Source: a bacterium
GTDB taxonomy: Bacteria; Electryoneota; Electryoneia; Electryoneales; Electryoneaceae
Reading direction: 5' to 3'
DNA length: 64,000 bases
NCBI GenBank assembly: GCA_020444425.1
Contig: JAHLLB010000001.1
Location: forward strand, 266,938 to 330,937
The notes beneath the pieces were generated by a model, which saw only the letters and a program-made list of their open reading frames with translations, had not been told where the DNA came from and did not search any database. This document shows, piece after piece, positions 59,449-64,000 of this stretch; within the stretch, counting starts at the first letter, position 1; each line of letters starts with the position of its first letter. The position numbers and the translations under genes are program-made.

Positions 59449-60783
59449 ATGACCAACCCATTCCAGGTGATTTCGGGGATCAAGCGCAAAGAACTGCCGC
59501 TGGCGCTGCTGATGTTTGCTTACTTTTTCCTCGTGATCTCGAGTTTCTGGATTCTTAAGCCGATCAAGAAGTCGCTGTTCATCTCGTACTACGACGTTGG
59601 CGGCTTCAACCTGTTCGGCTGGCTGATGACGGCGTCGCAGGCCGAGCTGCTGGCAAAAGTGCTGAACATGCTCGTCGCGGTGGTTGCGGTGACGGTGTTC
59701 ACGTTGCTTGTGCGACGCATGCGGCGGCAACAGCTGACCTATGTCTTCTCCGCTTTCTTCATCATCAGTTACGGCTTCTACACCTTCCTGCTGGCCAACC
59801 TCAGCGGCGCAGTCGTGTGGTCGTTCTACCTCTTCGGCGATCTGTACAGCACGTTGATGGTCGCCACTTTCTTTGCATTCATGAACGACAGCGTCACGGC
59901 CAACGAGGCGAAACGGATGTACGGCCTGGTGGTGCTGGGCGGCGTCACCGGCGGCGTGTTCGGTACCAGTTCGCTGCGGCTGTGGATTGACGCGCTTTCG
60001 TCGTCCCAGTGGATGTGGGTTTTGATGGTGGTCGCGTTTATCATCCTGATGATTGCCTATGCGGCAGGCCGGCTCGTGGAAACTCGGCCGCTTGCTGCCG
60101 CCCCCACAGCGGCGCCGAAACCGGCGAACGAGGAGAAGAAATCGTCCAGCCGGAATGCTGCGTTCGAGGGAGCCGCACTGGTGTTCCGCAGCAAGTATTT
60201 GCTGTCGATTGTCGCGATTGTCGGGTTGTACGAAATCGTCAGCACCATCCTCGACTTCCAGTTCACCGCGACGGTGGCCCATTACAAGGACGGTGCTGCG
60301 ATTGGCGAACACTTCTCGACGGTGTTCGCGATCACCAACTGGACCTCGCTGCTGGTACAGTTCTTCCTCACGTCGATTATTCTGTCACGGTTCGGAGTAA
60401 TGGTCGCCCTGTCCATTCTGCCGATGATCATGATTTTTGCGTCCGGCGGGTTCCTCGCCGTGCCGATCCTGTGGATGGGCAGCATGCTGAACACGGCGGA
60501 CAACGGCTTCAGCTATTCGATCAACCAGTCGGCAAAGGAAACGCTGTACGTGCCGACCGACCGGGACACGAAATACAAGGCGAAAGCGTTCATTGACATG
60601 TTTGTGCAGCGGTTCGCCAAGGCGATAGCGGTCGGGGTGTCGTTGCTGGTGACCAGCATCTTCGCATCCTTCGGCAGTATCCGCTGGCTGTCTTTGTTCA
60701 CGATTGCGATTGTCGTGCTGTGGTTGATCGCGGTACGTTATGCGGGACGGGAGTTCAAGCGGATGACGCAGGAATCGAAGTAA
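59449..60783 (+). CDS. Tlc/NTT-family (ATP:ADP antiporter-like) or related MFS-type nucleotide transporter
   Basis: 444 aa, about 12 TM segments. N-terminal LLMFAYFFLVISSFWILKPIKKSLFI resembles the conserved Tlc N-terminus. Paralogous to the partial gene at 62805. Confidence 0.5.
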   Translation: MTNPFQVISGIKRKELPLALLMFAYFFLVISSFWILKPIKKSLFISYYDVGGFNLFGWLMTASQAELLAKVLNMLVAVVAVTVFTLLVRRMRRQQLTYVFSAFFIISYGFYTFLLANLSGAVVWSFYLFGDLYSTLMVATFFAFMNDSVTANEAKRMYGLVVLGGVTGGVFGTSSLRLWIDALSSSQWMWVLMVVAFIILMIAYAAGRLVETRPLAAAPTAAPKPANEEKKSSSRNAAFEGAALVFRSKYLLSIVAIVGLYEIVSTILDFQFTATVAHYKDGAAIGEHFSTVFAITNWTSLLVQFFLTSIILSRFGVMVALSILPMIMIFASGGFLAVPILWMGSMLNTADNGFSYSINQSAKETLYVPTDRDTKYKAKAFIDMFVQRFAKAIAVGVSLLVTSIFASFGSIRWLSLFTIAIVVLWLIAVRYAGREFKRMTQESK

Positions 60784-60836
60784 GAACGGACCGTGCGTGA
60801 TCCGGTTATTGATAGAGGAATCTGGCACAGGAGGTC

Positions 60837-61568
60837 GTGATGAAGTCGTCTCGCTGGTTTGTGATCGGATTGGTTCTCGTGCTTGGAATCGTGCTGCTAC
60901 GGCCGGTGCCAGCGCTCTCCCAGAACCGCGGCTGGGAGCGTTTTTATGAAGAGAATCTCGACCACTTCGTGCAATTCGGCCTCGAGAATGGAGTAAACCT
61001 CGCGTGGGCGCACCGATTCCAGGAAACGAACTTCCTTCGCTATGGGTTGGATCTGCGTCTCCAGGACGGAACCCGTGACAACAAGTGGGTGATGCCGGAT
61101 ACGACCACGTGGCAGAACGAATCGACCGATCAGTTCAACGTTCGGCTGCACGTGGATTACCTCAAGCCGGTCTACCCGTATGAGGCGGTGCGGCTGTACA
61201 TCGGGGCGGGACCGTTGTTCGGCCTGACCTGGTCCAACGACGAAATTTCGGAGCCAGTGGATCCAAACCTCGGCCTGCCGAACGAGAAACGCACGCTCGA
61301 GTACCAATCGTGGGAGATGGGCGCGCGGGCACTGGTCGGTGGTGAATATGCCCTCAACAGCCGCCTCAGCTTCTTCGCTGAGGTCAGCTTCGATGTGACC
61401 CATATCTGGTCGAAGACAGAGCAGAACCGGGATGACCTGCGTTACGACACCGGCACAGACTCGTACAGCATGGAACACTCAGTGTACACCGTCGAGAACA
61501 AGGATTGGGACATCGACATGAGCAACGTGATGATCGGCGTGACCTTCCGTTACGGCGAGGCACCCTGA
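60837..61568 (+). CDS. Small outer-membrane beta-barrel protein (OmpW/OmpX-like size)
   Basis: 243 aa with a signal peptide. Alternating beta-strand pattern. C-terminal MSNVMIGVTFRY. Paralog of 61928..62647. Confidence 0.5.
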   Translation: MMKSSRWFVIGLVLVLGIVLLRPVPALSQNRGWERFYEENLDHFVQFGLENGVNLAWAHRFQETNFLRYGLDLRLQDGTRDNKWVMPDTTTWQNESTDQFNVRLHVDYLKPVYPYEAVRLYIGAGPLFGLTWSNDEISEPVDPNLGLPNEKRTLEYQSWEMGARALVGGEYALNSRLSFFAEVSFDVTHIWSKTEQNRDDLRYDTGTDSYSMEHSVYTVENKDWDIDMSNVMIGVTFRYGEAP

Positions 61569-61927: not shown

Positions 61928-62647
61928 ATGAACACGAAGCATGGTTTACTGACAGGAATCATTATACTCTTACTGTTGGTAATGGCCTTACCCGTATCTG
62001 CGGGGTTGTTTGAAGACGATGAGGTGTACTACAGTGATGACCACCCGAACATGATCCAGCTCGGGTTGGATGAAACGGTCACACTGGCGTGGGCACACCG
62101 TGCGTTCGGTGATTACCTGATCCGTTACGGTGTCGACCTCAACTACTGGGGCGCGGACGAAGAGGAAACCCGGACCTACCCGGCCCCAGACACCACACTG
62201 TTCTATGAAGGCGAGGGCCACGACTACTACACCAGCCTGCATATCGATTTCATCAAGCCGTTCGAACCGTACAAGCAGGTGCGTGTCTATGTCGGCGGTG
62301 GTCCGTTCTTCAGTTGGGGCGACCGGGAAACGCGCGACAAGGTGCTGGTCGATCCGGACTATGGTTTGCCTGACTATTACAACAAATACACGGCGCAAAA
62401 CAAGCGGGCCGGCGTACGTGCGCTGGTCGGCGGTGAGTTCGCGGTCAATCAGCGTGTCGGCATCTTCTTCGAAACTGGATTCAATGCCTACATGCAGTGG
62501 AGTGAGTATGATACCTACGACCGGCAGGTCCTGTACAACCCTGACACTGAGTCGTATTACTACGGCGACTATTCGCGGGAGAGTGACTATTCCCGTTGGA
62601 ACGTCAACATGTCCAACGTGATGGTCGGCATCACCTTCCGCTACTAG
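61928..62647 (+). CDS. Small outer-membrane beta-barrel protein, paralog of 60837..61568
   Basis: ORF 61904..62647. The likely start is ATG at 61928 (MNTKHGLLTGIIILLLLVMALPVSA). Shares LAWAHR, RYG(L/V)DL, VGGGP(L/F)F, RALVGGE(Y/F)A and the terminal MSNVMVGITFRY* with its paralog. Confidence 0.5.
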   Translation: MNTKHGLLTGIIILLLLVMALPVSAGLFEDDEVYYSDDHPNMIQLGLDETVTLAWAHRAFGDYLIRYGVDLNYWGADEEETRTYPAPDTTLFYEGEGHDYYTSLHIDFIKPFEPYKQVRVYVGGGPFFSWGDRETRDKVLVDPDYGLPDYYNKYTAQNKRAGVRALVGGEFAVNQRVGIFFETGFNAYMQWSEYDTYDRQVLYNPDTESYYYGDYSRESDYSRWNVNMSNVMVGITFRY

Positions 62648-62804
62648 ATCCCATCTACACGACATACTCTGAACGCGCCCAATCGCGATTCAGACTTCAC
62701 CCGGCTCCCGGATAGCCCCATGCACGGTTCGGAGCCGGGTGATTCACGTTGTACCTTGCCGTGCGAGTCGAACCCCGAATTTGCAGACAGACGAATCCGT
62801 CACC

Positions 62805-64000
62805 ATGCAAAAACCCCTGTTGCGCAAAGCACTCAACCTTGAGCCCGGTGAGGGAAAACGGGCGGCGTTGATGTTCAGCTACATCTTTCTGCTGATCGCG
62901 ACGTTGCTCGTGGTCAAGCCGGTGCGCAACTCGCTGTTCCTCACCCATTTCGGCATCGAGATGCTGCCGTACGCGTTTCTGCTCGTGGCGGTGGTATCCG
63001 GGCTGTTTGTCGCGATCTACACCCGTATTGCGAACAAGATCCGGCTTGATCGATTGATCCAATACACGTTGGGAAGCAGCGTCGGAACGATTATCGTACT
63101 CTGGCTGCTCTTGCAACTACACTACGAAGCCGGCTGGTTCTTCTTCCTTTTGTATGTCTGGGTAGCGATCTTCGGCGTGCTGGTTACGACGCAGTTCTGG
63201 TTGCTCGCGAACTATGTGTTCAACGTGCGCGAGGCAAAACGCATTTTCGGTCTGCTCGGCGCGGGTGGAATCGCTGGCGGGATCTTTGGCGGCTATTTCA
63301 CGAACATTCTCGCTCCGTTTGCCGGCAGCGAGGATCTGCTGCTGTTCGGCGCGTTGTTCCTGATCGGGTGCATGGTGCTGGTACAATTTGTCTGGACCAC
63401 GGGCGCCCAGGAAACGTACCGCGAACAGACTCAGCGCCGCCGCAAACGGCAGAGCGCGGACCTCGACGGCACGAATCCGATGCGAATCGTGTTCGGCAAC
63501 CGTTATCTCAGCCTGCTTGCAACCCTGATCGGGGTCGGTGTCATCATCGCCAACCTCGTTGACTACCAGTATAGCGCGATCGCGACCTCGGTGATCACGG
63601 ACGAGGACAAGCTGACCGCGTTCTTCGGGTTCTGGCTCTCAACGTTGAGCGTCTTCTCGCTGGTGATTCAGCTGCTGCTGACCAGCCGTGTCCTGCGCCG
63701 TTATGGTGTGGGCGGCTCCCTCTACTTCCTCCCCGGAGGTATCCTCGTTGGTTCGATCATGGTATTGATCTCCGGTGGGTTGACCTCGGCGGTGATGATC
63801 AAATTGTTCGAAGGCGGATTCAAGCAGTCGATCCACAAGGCCGGGCTCGAACTGCTGTGGTTGCCGATTCCGACCTCGGTGAAAAACCGGGTCAAGGCGT
63901 TCATTGATGTCTTCGTCGACAACACCGCCACCGGCATCGGCGGGTTGTTGCTGATTCTGCTCGCCGATCAGCTCGGCTGGGGTATTGGCGGTGTCAGCGG
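62805..64000 (+). CDS. Tlc/NTT-family transporter paralog, 5' part (gene runs off window end)
   Basis: My own translation from ATG at 62805: MQKPLLRKALNLEPGEGKRAALMFSYIFLLIATLLVVKPVRNSLFLTHFGIEMLPYAFLLV...KAFIDVFVDNTATGIGGLL. It parallels 59449..60783 (KPIKKSLFI / KAFIDMFVQRFAKAIA). Confidence 0.5.
   Translation, partial: MQKPLLRKALNLEPGEGKRAALMFSYIFLLIATLLVVKPVRNSLFLTHFGIEMLPYAFLLVAVVSGLFVAIYTRIANKIRLDRLIQYTLGSSVGTIIVLWLLLQLHYEAGWFFFLLYVWVAIFGVLVTTQFWLLANYVFNVREAKRIFGLLGAGGIAGGIFGGYFTNILAPFAGSEDLLLFGALFLIGCMVLVQFVWTTGAQETYREQTQRRRKRQSADLDGTNPMRIVFGNRYLSLLATLIGVGVIIANLVDYQYSAIATSVITDEDKLTAFFGFWLSTLSVFSLVIQLLLTSRVLRRYGVGGSLYFLPGGILVGSIMVLISGGLTSAVMIKLFEGGFKQSIHKAGLELLWLPIPTSVKNRVKAFIDVFVDNTATGIGGLLLILLADQLGWGIGGVS

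Follow-up and report, generated by a model that had tools for sequence, protein, structure and literature searches.

Rare outer-membrane barrels lie between an ancient pair of TLC/NTT-family carriers in a conserved envelope cluster

Four genes at the tail of an envelope cluster

We analyzed a stretch of 64,000 nucleotides of bacterial DNA (the window) that ends in four genes, T1, B1, B2, and T2, all of them confirmed and all on the + strand. T1 (59449..60783) encodes a stand-alone inner-membrane carrier of the TLC/NTT family, 444 aa long, with a Pfam TLC match. After a spacer of 56 nt comes B1 (60840..61568), which encodes a small, lineage-restricted outer-membrane beta-barrel of 242 aa, counted from an ATG that has GGAGG ahead of it; in the ORF list, this gene starts instead at a GTG at 60837. 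B2 (61928..62647) encodes a diverged paralog of B1, 239 aa long from its ATG and ending in ...TFRY, and is listed with a TTG start at 61904. The earlier note put the gap between the barrel genes at 335 bp, which is correct only if B2 starts at its TTG; counted to the ATG, the gap is 359 nt. T2 starts 157 nt after B2 and is cut by the window end (62805..64000 and beyond), leaving 398 aa visible.

The observation of two paralogous pairs on one strand is borne out, with significant matches in both: T1 and T2 are 25% identical over ~400 aa (E 1e-21), and B1 and B2 are 36% identical over 210 aa (E 2e-45). The motifs quoted for these proteins are present too, except that B1 reads IGAGPLF, not VGGGPLF.

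The spacers contain two candidate transcription signals. A terminator-like hairpin with a U-tract follows B1 (61601..61630, + strand; 12-bp stem, dG -18.5 kcal/mol, z -3.3, tail UUUUCUCUCU) and is kept in a related locus, L001, amid an otherwise diverging spacer. Because the 56-nt spacer carries a ribosome-binding site and the hairpin lies after B1, T1 and B1 are probably co-transcribed. The spacer between B2 and T2 contains a perfect 12-bp inverted repeat without a U-tract (62697..62742, + strand; dG -29.4 kcal/mol, z -2.9), and B2 is probably transcribed with T2. T1-B1 and B2-T2, which appear to be two transcription units, echo the pairing of carrier and barrel described in the earlier note.

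The cluster of co-oriented genes is longer, beginning at ~53568, and these four genes make up its tail. At its head is a hybrid response-regulator/histidine-kinase gene (53568..54995, + strand; Pfam Response_reg, HisKA, HATPase_c), found in the same place in L001, in L005, and in many T1 loci. At another locus, L088, a PF13505 gene lies upstream of the cluster in divergent orientation. The kinase gene is followed on the + strand by genes for an Omp85-family outer-membrane protein with a signal peptide (55158..56480; 440 aa; Pfam Omp85 57 bits, cut-off 24), for U556, a secreted, probably lipidated, protein-kinase-like protein of 554 aa (56483..58147), and for a metallophosphoesterase lipoprotein (58149..59387; 412 aa, lipobox LLNGC; Pfam Metallophos 48 bits, cut-off 21.5). 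In Ca. Electryonea, a MazEF module lies between the phosphoesterase gene and T1. The Omp85 gene is directly upstream of U556 in 56/68 loci and a TLC-family gene is downstream of U556 in 29/58; the metallophosphoesterase is found in 9/61 T1 loci and in close relatives. A unit of sensor kinases, Omp85, U556, in some cases the metallophosphoesterase, T1, T2 fused to HEAT repeats (T2-HEAT), a cNMP-binding protein, and a response regulator is conserved in many phyla. The conserved outer partners of the carriers are probably Omp85 and U556, encoded just upstream.

The carriers and the kinase-like lipoprotein

The proposal that the carriers belong to the Tlc/NTT family is upheld by Pfam PF03219, which scores 92.1 bits for T1 and 52 bits for T2 against a cut-off of 21. 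Both are under the cut-off of 387.2 bits for TIGR00769, the NCBIfam model for the NTP/NDP exchange transporter (T1 83.2, T2 41.1). Judging by sequence, T1 and T2 are distant members of the family and not close kin of the characterised ATP/ADP translocases. The T1 family profile matches the solved AtNTT1 structure 9j3j (E 1.2e-20, residues 121-437) as well as 9j3n (E 2.7e-16); for a family whose members have about 12 membrane helices, a crude hydropathy scan (Kyte-Doolittle) picks out ~10 strongly hydrophobic segments in T1 as well as a membrane domain of 415 aa in T2. More than 2000 homologs of T1, at ~57-67% identity, occur across phyla.

What the window shows of T2 is the N-terminal part of an NTT-HEAT fusion, as read from its 953-aa ortholog in L001, which is 96% identical over the first 398 aa and matches both TLC (44.6 bits) and HEAT_2 (68.6 bits); the HEAT part lies beyond the window end. 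Downstream of this ortholog come a cNMP_binding gene and then a Response_reg gene. A separate cNMP-binding gene, outside the window, stands directly 3' of T2-HEAT in L001, L005, L088, L090, and the other T2-HEAT loci surveyed. T1 and T2 are inner-membrane carriers of the TLC/NTT family whose linkage is ancient.

This order recalls the NTT/NTT-HEAT/cNBD arrangement of Major, Embley & Williams 2017 (PMC5381601), as it is set out in passages of that paper. The T2 ortholog is likewise an NTT with C-terminal HEAT repeats, the cNMP-binding gene lies a few nt past it exactly as described there, and T1 is an NTT-like protein with a single domain, encoded by a free-living bacterium. The same passages do not name Omp85, the kinase-like lipoprotein, the phosphoesterase, the paired stand-alone NTT, or small-barrel neighbours, and the main text contains no mention of the outer membrane.

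The AlphaFold model of U556 (pLDDT 89.4, pTM 0.89) has as its best Foldseek match the Golgi casein kinase Fam20 (4kqa/4kqb; E 1e-4, prob 1.0, TM 0.28-0.37), followed by Fam20C, alpha-kinase, PINK1, VPS34, and Rio2. Across 33 homologs, the catalytic motifs are invariant or nearly so: the beta3 Lys (K154), the acidic residue of alphaC (E/D168), HxDxKxxN (H284/D286/K288/N291), and DFG (D311-F312-G313). U556 matches no Pfam or NCBIfam family above threshold and no PDB sequence; weak but recurring HipA_2 matches appear in 8/33 members (best E 0.01), and the sole hydrophobic segment is N-terminal. The model gives U556 a protein-kinase-like fold.

The barrels B1 and B2

The assignment of the small proteins as outer-membrane beta-barrels is confirmed by AlphaFold, Foldseek, and hhalign. 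The model of B1 (pLDDT 89) has 8 beta elements, and its best Foldseek folds are the 8-stranded barrels CarO, TtoA, OmpW, and OprG; KdgM appears only at rank 45 (E 7e-3). Direct searches with B1 and B2 gave no Pfam match at E <= 1 and no NCBIfam match. With hhalign, the B1 family aligns to PF13505-type outer-membrane proteins of ~240 aa over 230 columns (prob 99.94, E 1e-36); 14/36 of these proteins match PF13505 and 7/36 match PF13568. The N-terminal helix or hydrophobic segment of the barrels is a signal peptide. With CarO (4fuv), TtoA (3dzm), OmpW (2f1t, 8qxp), OprG (2x27), and PF13505 proteins they share this signal peptide, a mature protein of ~215 aa, 8 long antiparallel strands (predicted), and an aromatic-rich C-terminal strand. 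They differ in having their own invariant motifs and an extremely narrow distribution, and TM-scores are only 0.3-0.5. The aromatic residue is the last one in B2 (TFRY) and is not strictly terminal in B1 (TFRYGEAP).

The family is very rare. Only four relatives of B1 (P0001-P0004) were found in 5.8 billion clusters; an exhaustive search returned only 2 representatives below E 1e-30, one of them the window's own B2. Among ~15 billion proteins, only a handful of sequences belong to the family. Outside the window, B2 was found in the 94% relative only, and in the barrel tree it is sister to all B1-type sequences and evolves ~3x faster than B1. The barrels are intact; in B1-type sequences (48-54% identity), 50 columns are invariant, and the family-invariant motifs are LAWAHR, PDTT, GxGP, VDP, and RALVGGE. 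The two barrel genes are diverged tandem copies that encode a very rare small outer-membrane protein from the OMP_b-brl superfamily.

How the barrels relate to the carriers

The earlier note read the two pairs as a recurring association of carrier and barrel, and named in advance a lack of conserved adjacency in relatives as grounds for rejecting it. Such a lack is what we find. We surveyed 65 species-level T1 loci with at least 1.5 kb of downstream sequence and counted any barrel within 10 kb; only the 94% relative has any (1/65, in a screen with HMMs of the B1/B2 family, which unrelated small outer-membrane proteins would escape). A barrel is near U556 in 2/79 U556 loci. The full cluster, minus any barrel, is present in the next-closest T1 relatives (69% and 65% identity), and in 19/65 loci from many phyla T2-HEAT directly follows T1, leaving no room for a barrel gene. 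The spacer between T1 and T2 holds two barrel copies in the window, two in the 94% relative, and one in the 79% relative; in L005, the order is T1-barrel-T2. These data show that the barrels are a rare, lineage-specific insertion between the carriers and not a conserved channel partner. Slot, orientation, and integrity are nevertheless kept in two or more diverged lineages (window/L001 and L005), which argues for some functional tie between barrels and carriers.

The form of this tie could be transport, with each barrel serving, in this lineage only, as the outer-membrane channel for its neighbouring carrier's substrate, be it nucleotides or another charged metabolite. The tight co-oriented linkage, the hairpin that parts T1-B1 from B2-T2, and the barrel still found between T1 and T2 in L005 speak for this, and small-molecule uptake is known for some 8-stranded barrels (OmpW, OprG, CarO). 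In E. coli, Tsx and NupC/NupG make up a nucleoside uptake route of the kind that the earlier note envisaged, in which a substrate-specific channel in the outer membrane feeds a nucleoside/nucleotide carrier in the inner membrane; Tsx is not encoded beside its carriers, and it forms an open channel of 12 strands, against a predicted 8 for B1. Twelve strands are the rule in the known channels for nucleosides or acidic sugars (Tsx, KdgM/NanC), and to our knowledge the 8-stranded class like CarO, OmpW, and TtoA does not pass nucleotides. The structure prediction that had been proposed as a check gives 8 beta elements, not the 12 or more strands of such channels, and a barrel of this size would be a poor nucleotide pore, too narrow for such substrates. 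In addition, barrels are missing from 64/65 T1 loci and 77/79 U556 loci, T1 orthologs at ~60% identity manage without such a barrel in many phyla, and the relative P0002 keeps its barrel at a locus without a TLC gene. A dedicated two-membrane uptake route therefore finds no backing here, and even a transport role confined to this lineage is improbable.

Unlikely, too, is that the barrels are unrelated passengers, a generic small outer-membrane protein gene that landed in a permissive spacer, was duplicated, and rides the operon promoters. It would account for three distant homologs of ~240 aa that show no TLC gene nearby (P0010, with 5-kb flanks, and two on short contigs, P0006 on 3.7 kb and P0008 on 1.1 kb with almost no context), for the rapid evolution of B2, for the transposase fragment that follows the barrel in L002, and for insertion elsewhere in the cluster, as with MazEF in Ca. 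Electryonea. Mere passengers, however, would hardly be expected to remain intact with their invariant columns, to sit in the same place and on the same strand in both L001 and L005, or to have the good ribosome-binding site and short spacers seen for B1. The duplication of a carrier-barrel module followed by inversion or rearrangement, which would make T1-B1 and B2-T2 sister modules, has next to no probability. Both gene types do occur twice and both pairs are paralogous, but T1 and T2-HEAT lie side by side, with no barrel between them, in at least 19 species of many phyla, so the duplication behind T1 and T2 is far older than the presence of the barrels. T1 and T2 are also less similar to each other than B1 and B2 are (25% versus 36%), L005 has a single barrel, and nothing was inverted because all four genes are on one strand. 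The order that was described as mirrored amounts to two barrel genes in a row with a carrier gene on either side, and rearrangement is unnecessary when two tandem barrels lie within an ancient carrier pair.

We favor, with a probability of about 0.7, the reading in which an ancient T1/T2-HEAT pair belongs to an envelope cluster and the rare barrels were inserted between the two carriers as lineage-specific surface accessory proteins, not as a nucleotide pore. In this reading, the barrels would be exported by Sec and inserted in the outer membrane as 8-stranded barrels whose long strands protrude from it, with the invariant motifs PDTT and VDPxxG between strands, at the predicted outer tips. 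Protruding barrels with invariant motifs so placed would most likely have a surface-exposed accessory role, serving the envelope system of this lineage by binding or anchoring.

For the cluster as a whole, a likeness to eukaryotes may be instructive. There, the ATP/ADP exchanger AXER/SLC35B1 feeds lumenal ATP to the secretory-pathway kinase Fam20C; here, the gene for U556, a kinase-fold protein located outside the cytoplasm, is linked to genes for carriers from a family of ATP/ADP exchangers. The TLC and SLC35 carrier families are unrelated, and U556 and Fam20 have only the common fold and catalytic motifs in common, at 6-10% identity, with the activity of U556 being predicted. By this analogy the cluster suggests, speculatively, that the carriers may supply ATP to U556 outside the cytoplasm.

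The carrier and barrel genes

The four genes claimed in the earlier note, two carriers of the TLC/NTT family (T1 and T2) and two small outer-membrane barrels between them (B1 and B2), are all present on the plus strand. T1 lies at 59449-60783 (444 aa), B1 at 60840-61568 (242 aa, its ATG 8 nt downstream of a GGAGG), B2 at 61928-62647 (239 aa), and T2 runs from 62805 to beyond the end of the window (398 aa visible). Both pairs are indeed paralogs; the barrels share 36% identity across 210 residues (E 2e-45) and the carriers 25% across ~400 residues (E 1e-21). The shared motifs quoted in that note can be found in the sequences apart from one slip (B1 has IGAGPLF), and its gap of 335 nt between the barrel genes is right for a TTG start of B2; with the ATG, the gap is 359 nt.

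The Pfam TLC model (PF03219) matches T1 with 92.1 bits and T2 with 52 bits against a gathering cut-off of 21; the NCBIfam model TIGR00769 gives 83 and 41 bits, far under its cut-off of 387; and a search with a T1 family profile retrieves the solved structure of Arabidopsis NTT1 (9j3j) at an E-value of 1.2e-20. Given these scores, T1 and T2 are genuine but distant members of the NTT family, as proposed, and not generic MFS transporters. The T1 family is very large and strongly conserved (2162 matches, typically at 57-67% identity), with homologs from Zixibacteria, Calditrichota, Latescibacterota, Gemmatimonadota, Acidobacteriota, Myxococcota, and Halieaceae. In the closest relative (L001), the ortholog of T2 is a protein of 953 aa whose first 398 residues are 96% identical to the visible part of T2. 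Its TLC domain is fused to HEAT repeats (T2-HEAT), and next come genes for a cNMP-binding protein of 143 aa and a response regulator of 158 aa. This locus has the same NTT-HEAT and cNMP-binding architecture that is already described by Major et al (2017; PMC5381601).

A rare barrel inside an ancient carrier pair

Neither B1 nor B2 has a direct match in Pfam or NCBIfam. A word-indexed search of 5.8 billion clusters returned only four relatives (93, 54, 53, and 48% identity), and when 1.84 billion representatives were searched exhaustively by HMM, only two fell below E 1e-30, one of them the window's own B2. Weaker matches comprise ~500 proteins of 220-260 aa; profile-profile comparison of the family with 36 of them gives a probability of 99.94 and an E-value of 1e-36 over the full length, and PF13505 (OMP_b-brl) is detected in 14 of the 36 and PF13568 in seven. 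The AlphaFold model, built on a 50-sequence alignment (pLDDT 89, pTM 0.76), has a signal helix at the N-terminus and, after it, eight beta elements, of which six span 21-31 residues. The best solved structures in a fold search are the 8-stranded CarO, Thermus TtoA, OmpW, and OprG (E 1.6e-5 to 6e-3, at modest TM-scores of 0.3-0.5). The PF13505-type homology, the eight-element model, and these folds bear out the description of B1 and B2 as small outer-membrane beta-barrels. By prediction they fall in the 8-stranded class and not in the 12-stranded class to which nucleoside and acidic-sugar channels belong. Barrels with eight strands are, as far as is known, either closed or permeable only to small molecules that are mostly hydrophobic. 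The motifs PDTT and VDPxxG, invariant in the family, lie between strands 3/4 and 5/6, probably at the outer tips of protruding strands, a position that fits surface binding better than a pore.

The earlier note had read the pairing of carrier and barrel as a dedicated two-membrane uptake route. We surveyed the best 80 of at least 395 T1 relatives as species-level loci with flanks of up to 10 kb, using barrel-family HMMs and the window's other cluster proteins to search every ORF, and the best 80 of at least 499 relatives of U556, a secreted kinase-like lipoprotein encoded upstream of T1 (79 loci counted). A barrel lies within 10 kb of T1 in just one of 65 loci (L006, from the MAG of the closest relative, at 94% identity) and near U556 in two of 79, namely the same close relative and a decayed locus carrying the barrel P0002. 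The order T1-B1-B2-T2 of the window recurs in L001, and a locus whose T1 is 79% identical (L005) has the order T1-B-T2; the next-nearest relative listed (L088, T1 69% identical) and a Ca. Electryonea locus (L090, 65%) carry the full cluster with no barrel. The barrel P0004 sits on a contig of 1080 nt (L087) that gives no upstream context; the 320 nt downstream of the barrel contain no start of a T2-HEAT gene. No TLC neighbour was seen for the distant homologs P0010 (5-kb flanks) and P0006 (3.7-kb contig), nor for P0008 on a 1.1-kb contig with almost no context. Adjacency of carrier and barrel is therefore not conserved among these relatives, an outcome that the earlier note had itself named as refuting its reading, and with an unconserved adjacency and a barrel predicted to be 8-stranded, the uptake route is unsupported.

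The P0002 locus (L002-L004 and L109), where a barrel occurs in the absence of any TLC gene, was set aside as a clean example of a barrel without a carrier. A hybrid sensor kinase (residues 82-318) is joined in-frame to Omp85 (residues 50-440) at L002:7396-10723 and in the three other assemblies; U556 stops at residue 288, within the catalytic loop, and is followed by the barrel and then a transposase DNA-binding fragment, with no TLC gene left. The fusion may be a misassembly, and we give the locus little weight because it looks decayed or chimeric and all of its assemblies come from one marine sample. A crude screen of the 80 T1 loci, for ORFs of 140-330 aa that encode a signal peptide and an aromatic residue at the C-terminus, yielded no convincing other small outer-membrane protein; since it also missed B1, we give it no weight as evidence. 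In L088 a PF13505 gene at 1-456 (minus strand) lies upstream of the sensor kinase gene of the cluster and diverges from it; this gene went unseen by the barrel-family HMMs, so unrelated small outer-membrane proteins near the clusters may be missed.

Among the best 80 T1 relatives, 65 loci extend 1.5 kb or more beyond T1, and in 19 of these T2-HEAT follows T1 directly, with spacers under 400 nt that are too short to accommodate a barrel gene. T1 and T2-HEAT form an adjacent pair of ancient origin, whose spacer here houses the two barrel genes as a tandem in the same orientation. This arrangement requires neither an inversion nor a duplication of a carrier-barrel module, and it leaves unsupported the duplication and rearrangement that had been invoked for the mirrored gene order. 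A neighbour-joining tree places B2 as sister to the B1-type sequences as a whole (bootstrap 100), and between the window and L001 it has diverged about three times faster than B1 (distances of 0.20 and 0.06). With B2 outside the B1-type sequences yet evolving ~3x faster, the duplication may be either old or recent. Between the two genomes no gene of the cluster evolves faster than B2 (61928-62647 compared with L001:11110-11829); T1, T2, and U556 are 94-96% identical. A 13-nt repeat, CCGTGCGTGATCC, stands just after the stop codons of T1 (60791-60803) and B1 (61600-61612); it may be a scar of the tandem duplication, but with ~0.2 chance matches of this kind expected here it is only marginally above chance. 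In Ca. Electryonea clarkiae (L090:5616-7903), three small ORFs and the toxin-antitoxin pair MazE/PemK separate the phosphoesterase gene from T1, an insertion which shows that the cluster tolerates foreign genes at its gene junctions.

The spacers suggest how the genes are expressed. The T1-B1 spacer is 56 nt long and contains a ribosome-binding site; B1 is followed by a hairpin (61601-61630; dG -18.5 kcal/mol, z -3.3) and then UUUUCUCUCU, and this hairpin is kept in L001 within a diverging spacer; the B2-T2 spacer has a perfect 12-bp inverted repeat (dG -29.4 kcal/mol) without a U-tract. From these signals, separate T1-B1 and B2-T2... transcripts are plausible in this lineage. Alignment of the B1-B2 spacer (61569-61927) with L001:10730-11109, which carries a 19-nt insertion, leaves the terminator-like hairpin, GGAGNCATTGGCATCTCCTTTGCG, ATCGTTTTCAAGCGTT, and GATAGATYCGGAGGGA as conserved islands that may be regulatory sites for B2 and T2.

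A conserved cluster with Omp85 and a kinase-like lipoprotein

The genes upstream of T1 belong to a cluster that recurs in Zixibacteria, LCP-89, KSB1, Calditrichota, Ignavibacteria, Latescibacterota, Gemmatimonadota, Ca. Electryonea, and others, in the order sensor kinase(s), Omp85, U556 (~555 aa), often a metallophosphoesterase, T1, T2-HEAT, the cNMP-binding protein, and a response regulator. Among the best 80 U556 relatives, 56 of 68 loci have Omp85 as the immediate upstream neighbour of U556, and 29 of 58 have a downstream TLC-family gene in the same orientation; among the best 80 T1 relatives, U556 is upstream of T1 in 27 of 61. PADLOC returned nothing relevant for any of the cluster proteins, so the cluster is no known defence system. 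Two Omp85-U556 pairs occur in or beside one cluster in five loci from Latescibacterota and Gemmatimonas MAGs (L055, L077, L080, L121, L126); L077 and L080 encode their second pair downstream of the sensor kinase and on the other strand. Parahaliea maris HSLHS9 (L081), by its title the only named strain among the 80 T1 loci listed, has a T1 ortholog of ~60% identity without Omp85 or U556 genes and may serve as an experimental handle; here and in L061, L070, and L076 (Halioglobus/Halieaceae), a convergent TLC-like gene of ~560-600 aa lies right after the T1 ortholog.

U556 (56483-58147, plus strand) encodes a 554-aa 'hypothetical' protein; it has over 760 homologs, and Pfam offers no model for it. 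Profile searches of Pfam, NCBIfam, and PDB sequences gave no meaningful match, and only the fold search was informative. The AlphaFold model (pLDDT 89.4, pTM 0.89) best matches the Golgi casein kinases Fam20 and Fam20C (E 1e-4, probability 1.0, TM 0.28-0.40), with further matches to alpha-kinase, PINK1, VPS34, and Rio2. In an alignment of 33 sequences, K154 (in VIKFD), E/D168, H284-x-D286-x-K288-x-x-N291, and D311-F-G313 are invariant or nearly so; weak HipA_2 matches occur in eight of the 33. The sole hydrophobic segment of U556, the phosphoesterase, Omp85, B1, and B2 is N-terminal in each, and by sequence two of them resemble lipoproteins, namely U556 (…LAGSC) and the metallophosphoesterase (…LLNGC). 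The Fam20-like fold and conserved catalytic motifs lead us to predict that U556 is an active, extracytoplasmic kinase-fold protein. Our search of the literature on Fam20-like periplasmic bacterial kinases and periplasmic ATP found nothing usable. The metallophosphoesterase (58149-59387, plus strand) has weak, sub-threshold matches to 2',3'- and 3',5'-cyclic-nucleotide phosphodiesterases (SpdA at 27.8 bits, CpdA), and together with the cluster's cNMP-binding gene these sequence matches hint at a link to cyclic nucleotides.

Possible roles of the locus

The feature is a local variant of the known NTT/NTT-HEAT/cNMP-binding arrangement that carries a rare small outer-membrane protein, inserted and duplicated. 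We assign this architectural and evolutionary account a probability of about 0.7, and we have much lower confidence in any specific function of the barrels. We infer that B1 and B2 are lineage-specific, surface-exposed accessory proteins, co-expressed with the carriers, and not nucleotide channels.

For the conserved cluster, we consider a speculative and on balance improbable model, an extracytoplasmic phosphorylation system in which the NTT carriers feed ATP to the kinase-like lipoprotein. T1 and T2 would work as ATP/ADP exchangers in the export direction, trading cytoplasmic ATP for periplasmic ADP and so supplying the periplasm, a compartment generally considered free of ATP. U556 would use this ATP, acting with or on the Omp85 protein and, in this lineage, perhaps also with the B1 and B2 barrels; the phosphoesterase would provide the opposing activity, reversing the modification, and the cNMP-binding protein, the HEAT domain, and the two-component genes would gate the ATP supply. 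Against this model, about half of the T1 loci among the best 80 relatives lack U556 nearby, and the weak likeness of the phosphoesterase to cyclic-nucleotide phosphodiesterases would also fit a role of the cluster in nucleotide scavenging.

The pairing of barrel and carrier is a local curiosity and defines no new uptake system. More interesting is the result upstream, an undescribed and widely conserved linkage of NTT carriers with Omp85 and a secreted kinase-like lipoprotein. The wide distribution of NTTs was reported in 2017, and their role in free-living bacteria has been in question since then. The linkage turns this role into a testable hypothesis, the supply of ATP to an extracytoplasmic kinase, and makes the large U556 family a candidate periplasmic or surface kinase. 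If true, the ATP-supply model would explain why NTT genes persist in free-living bacteria.
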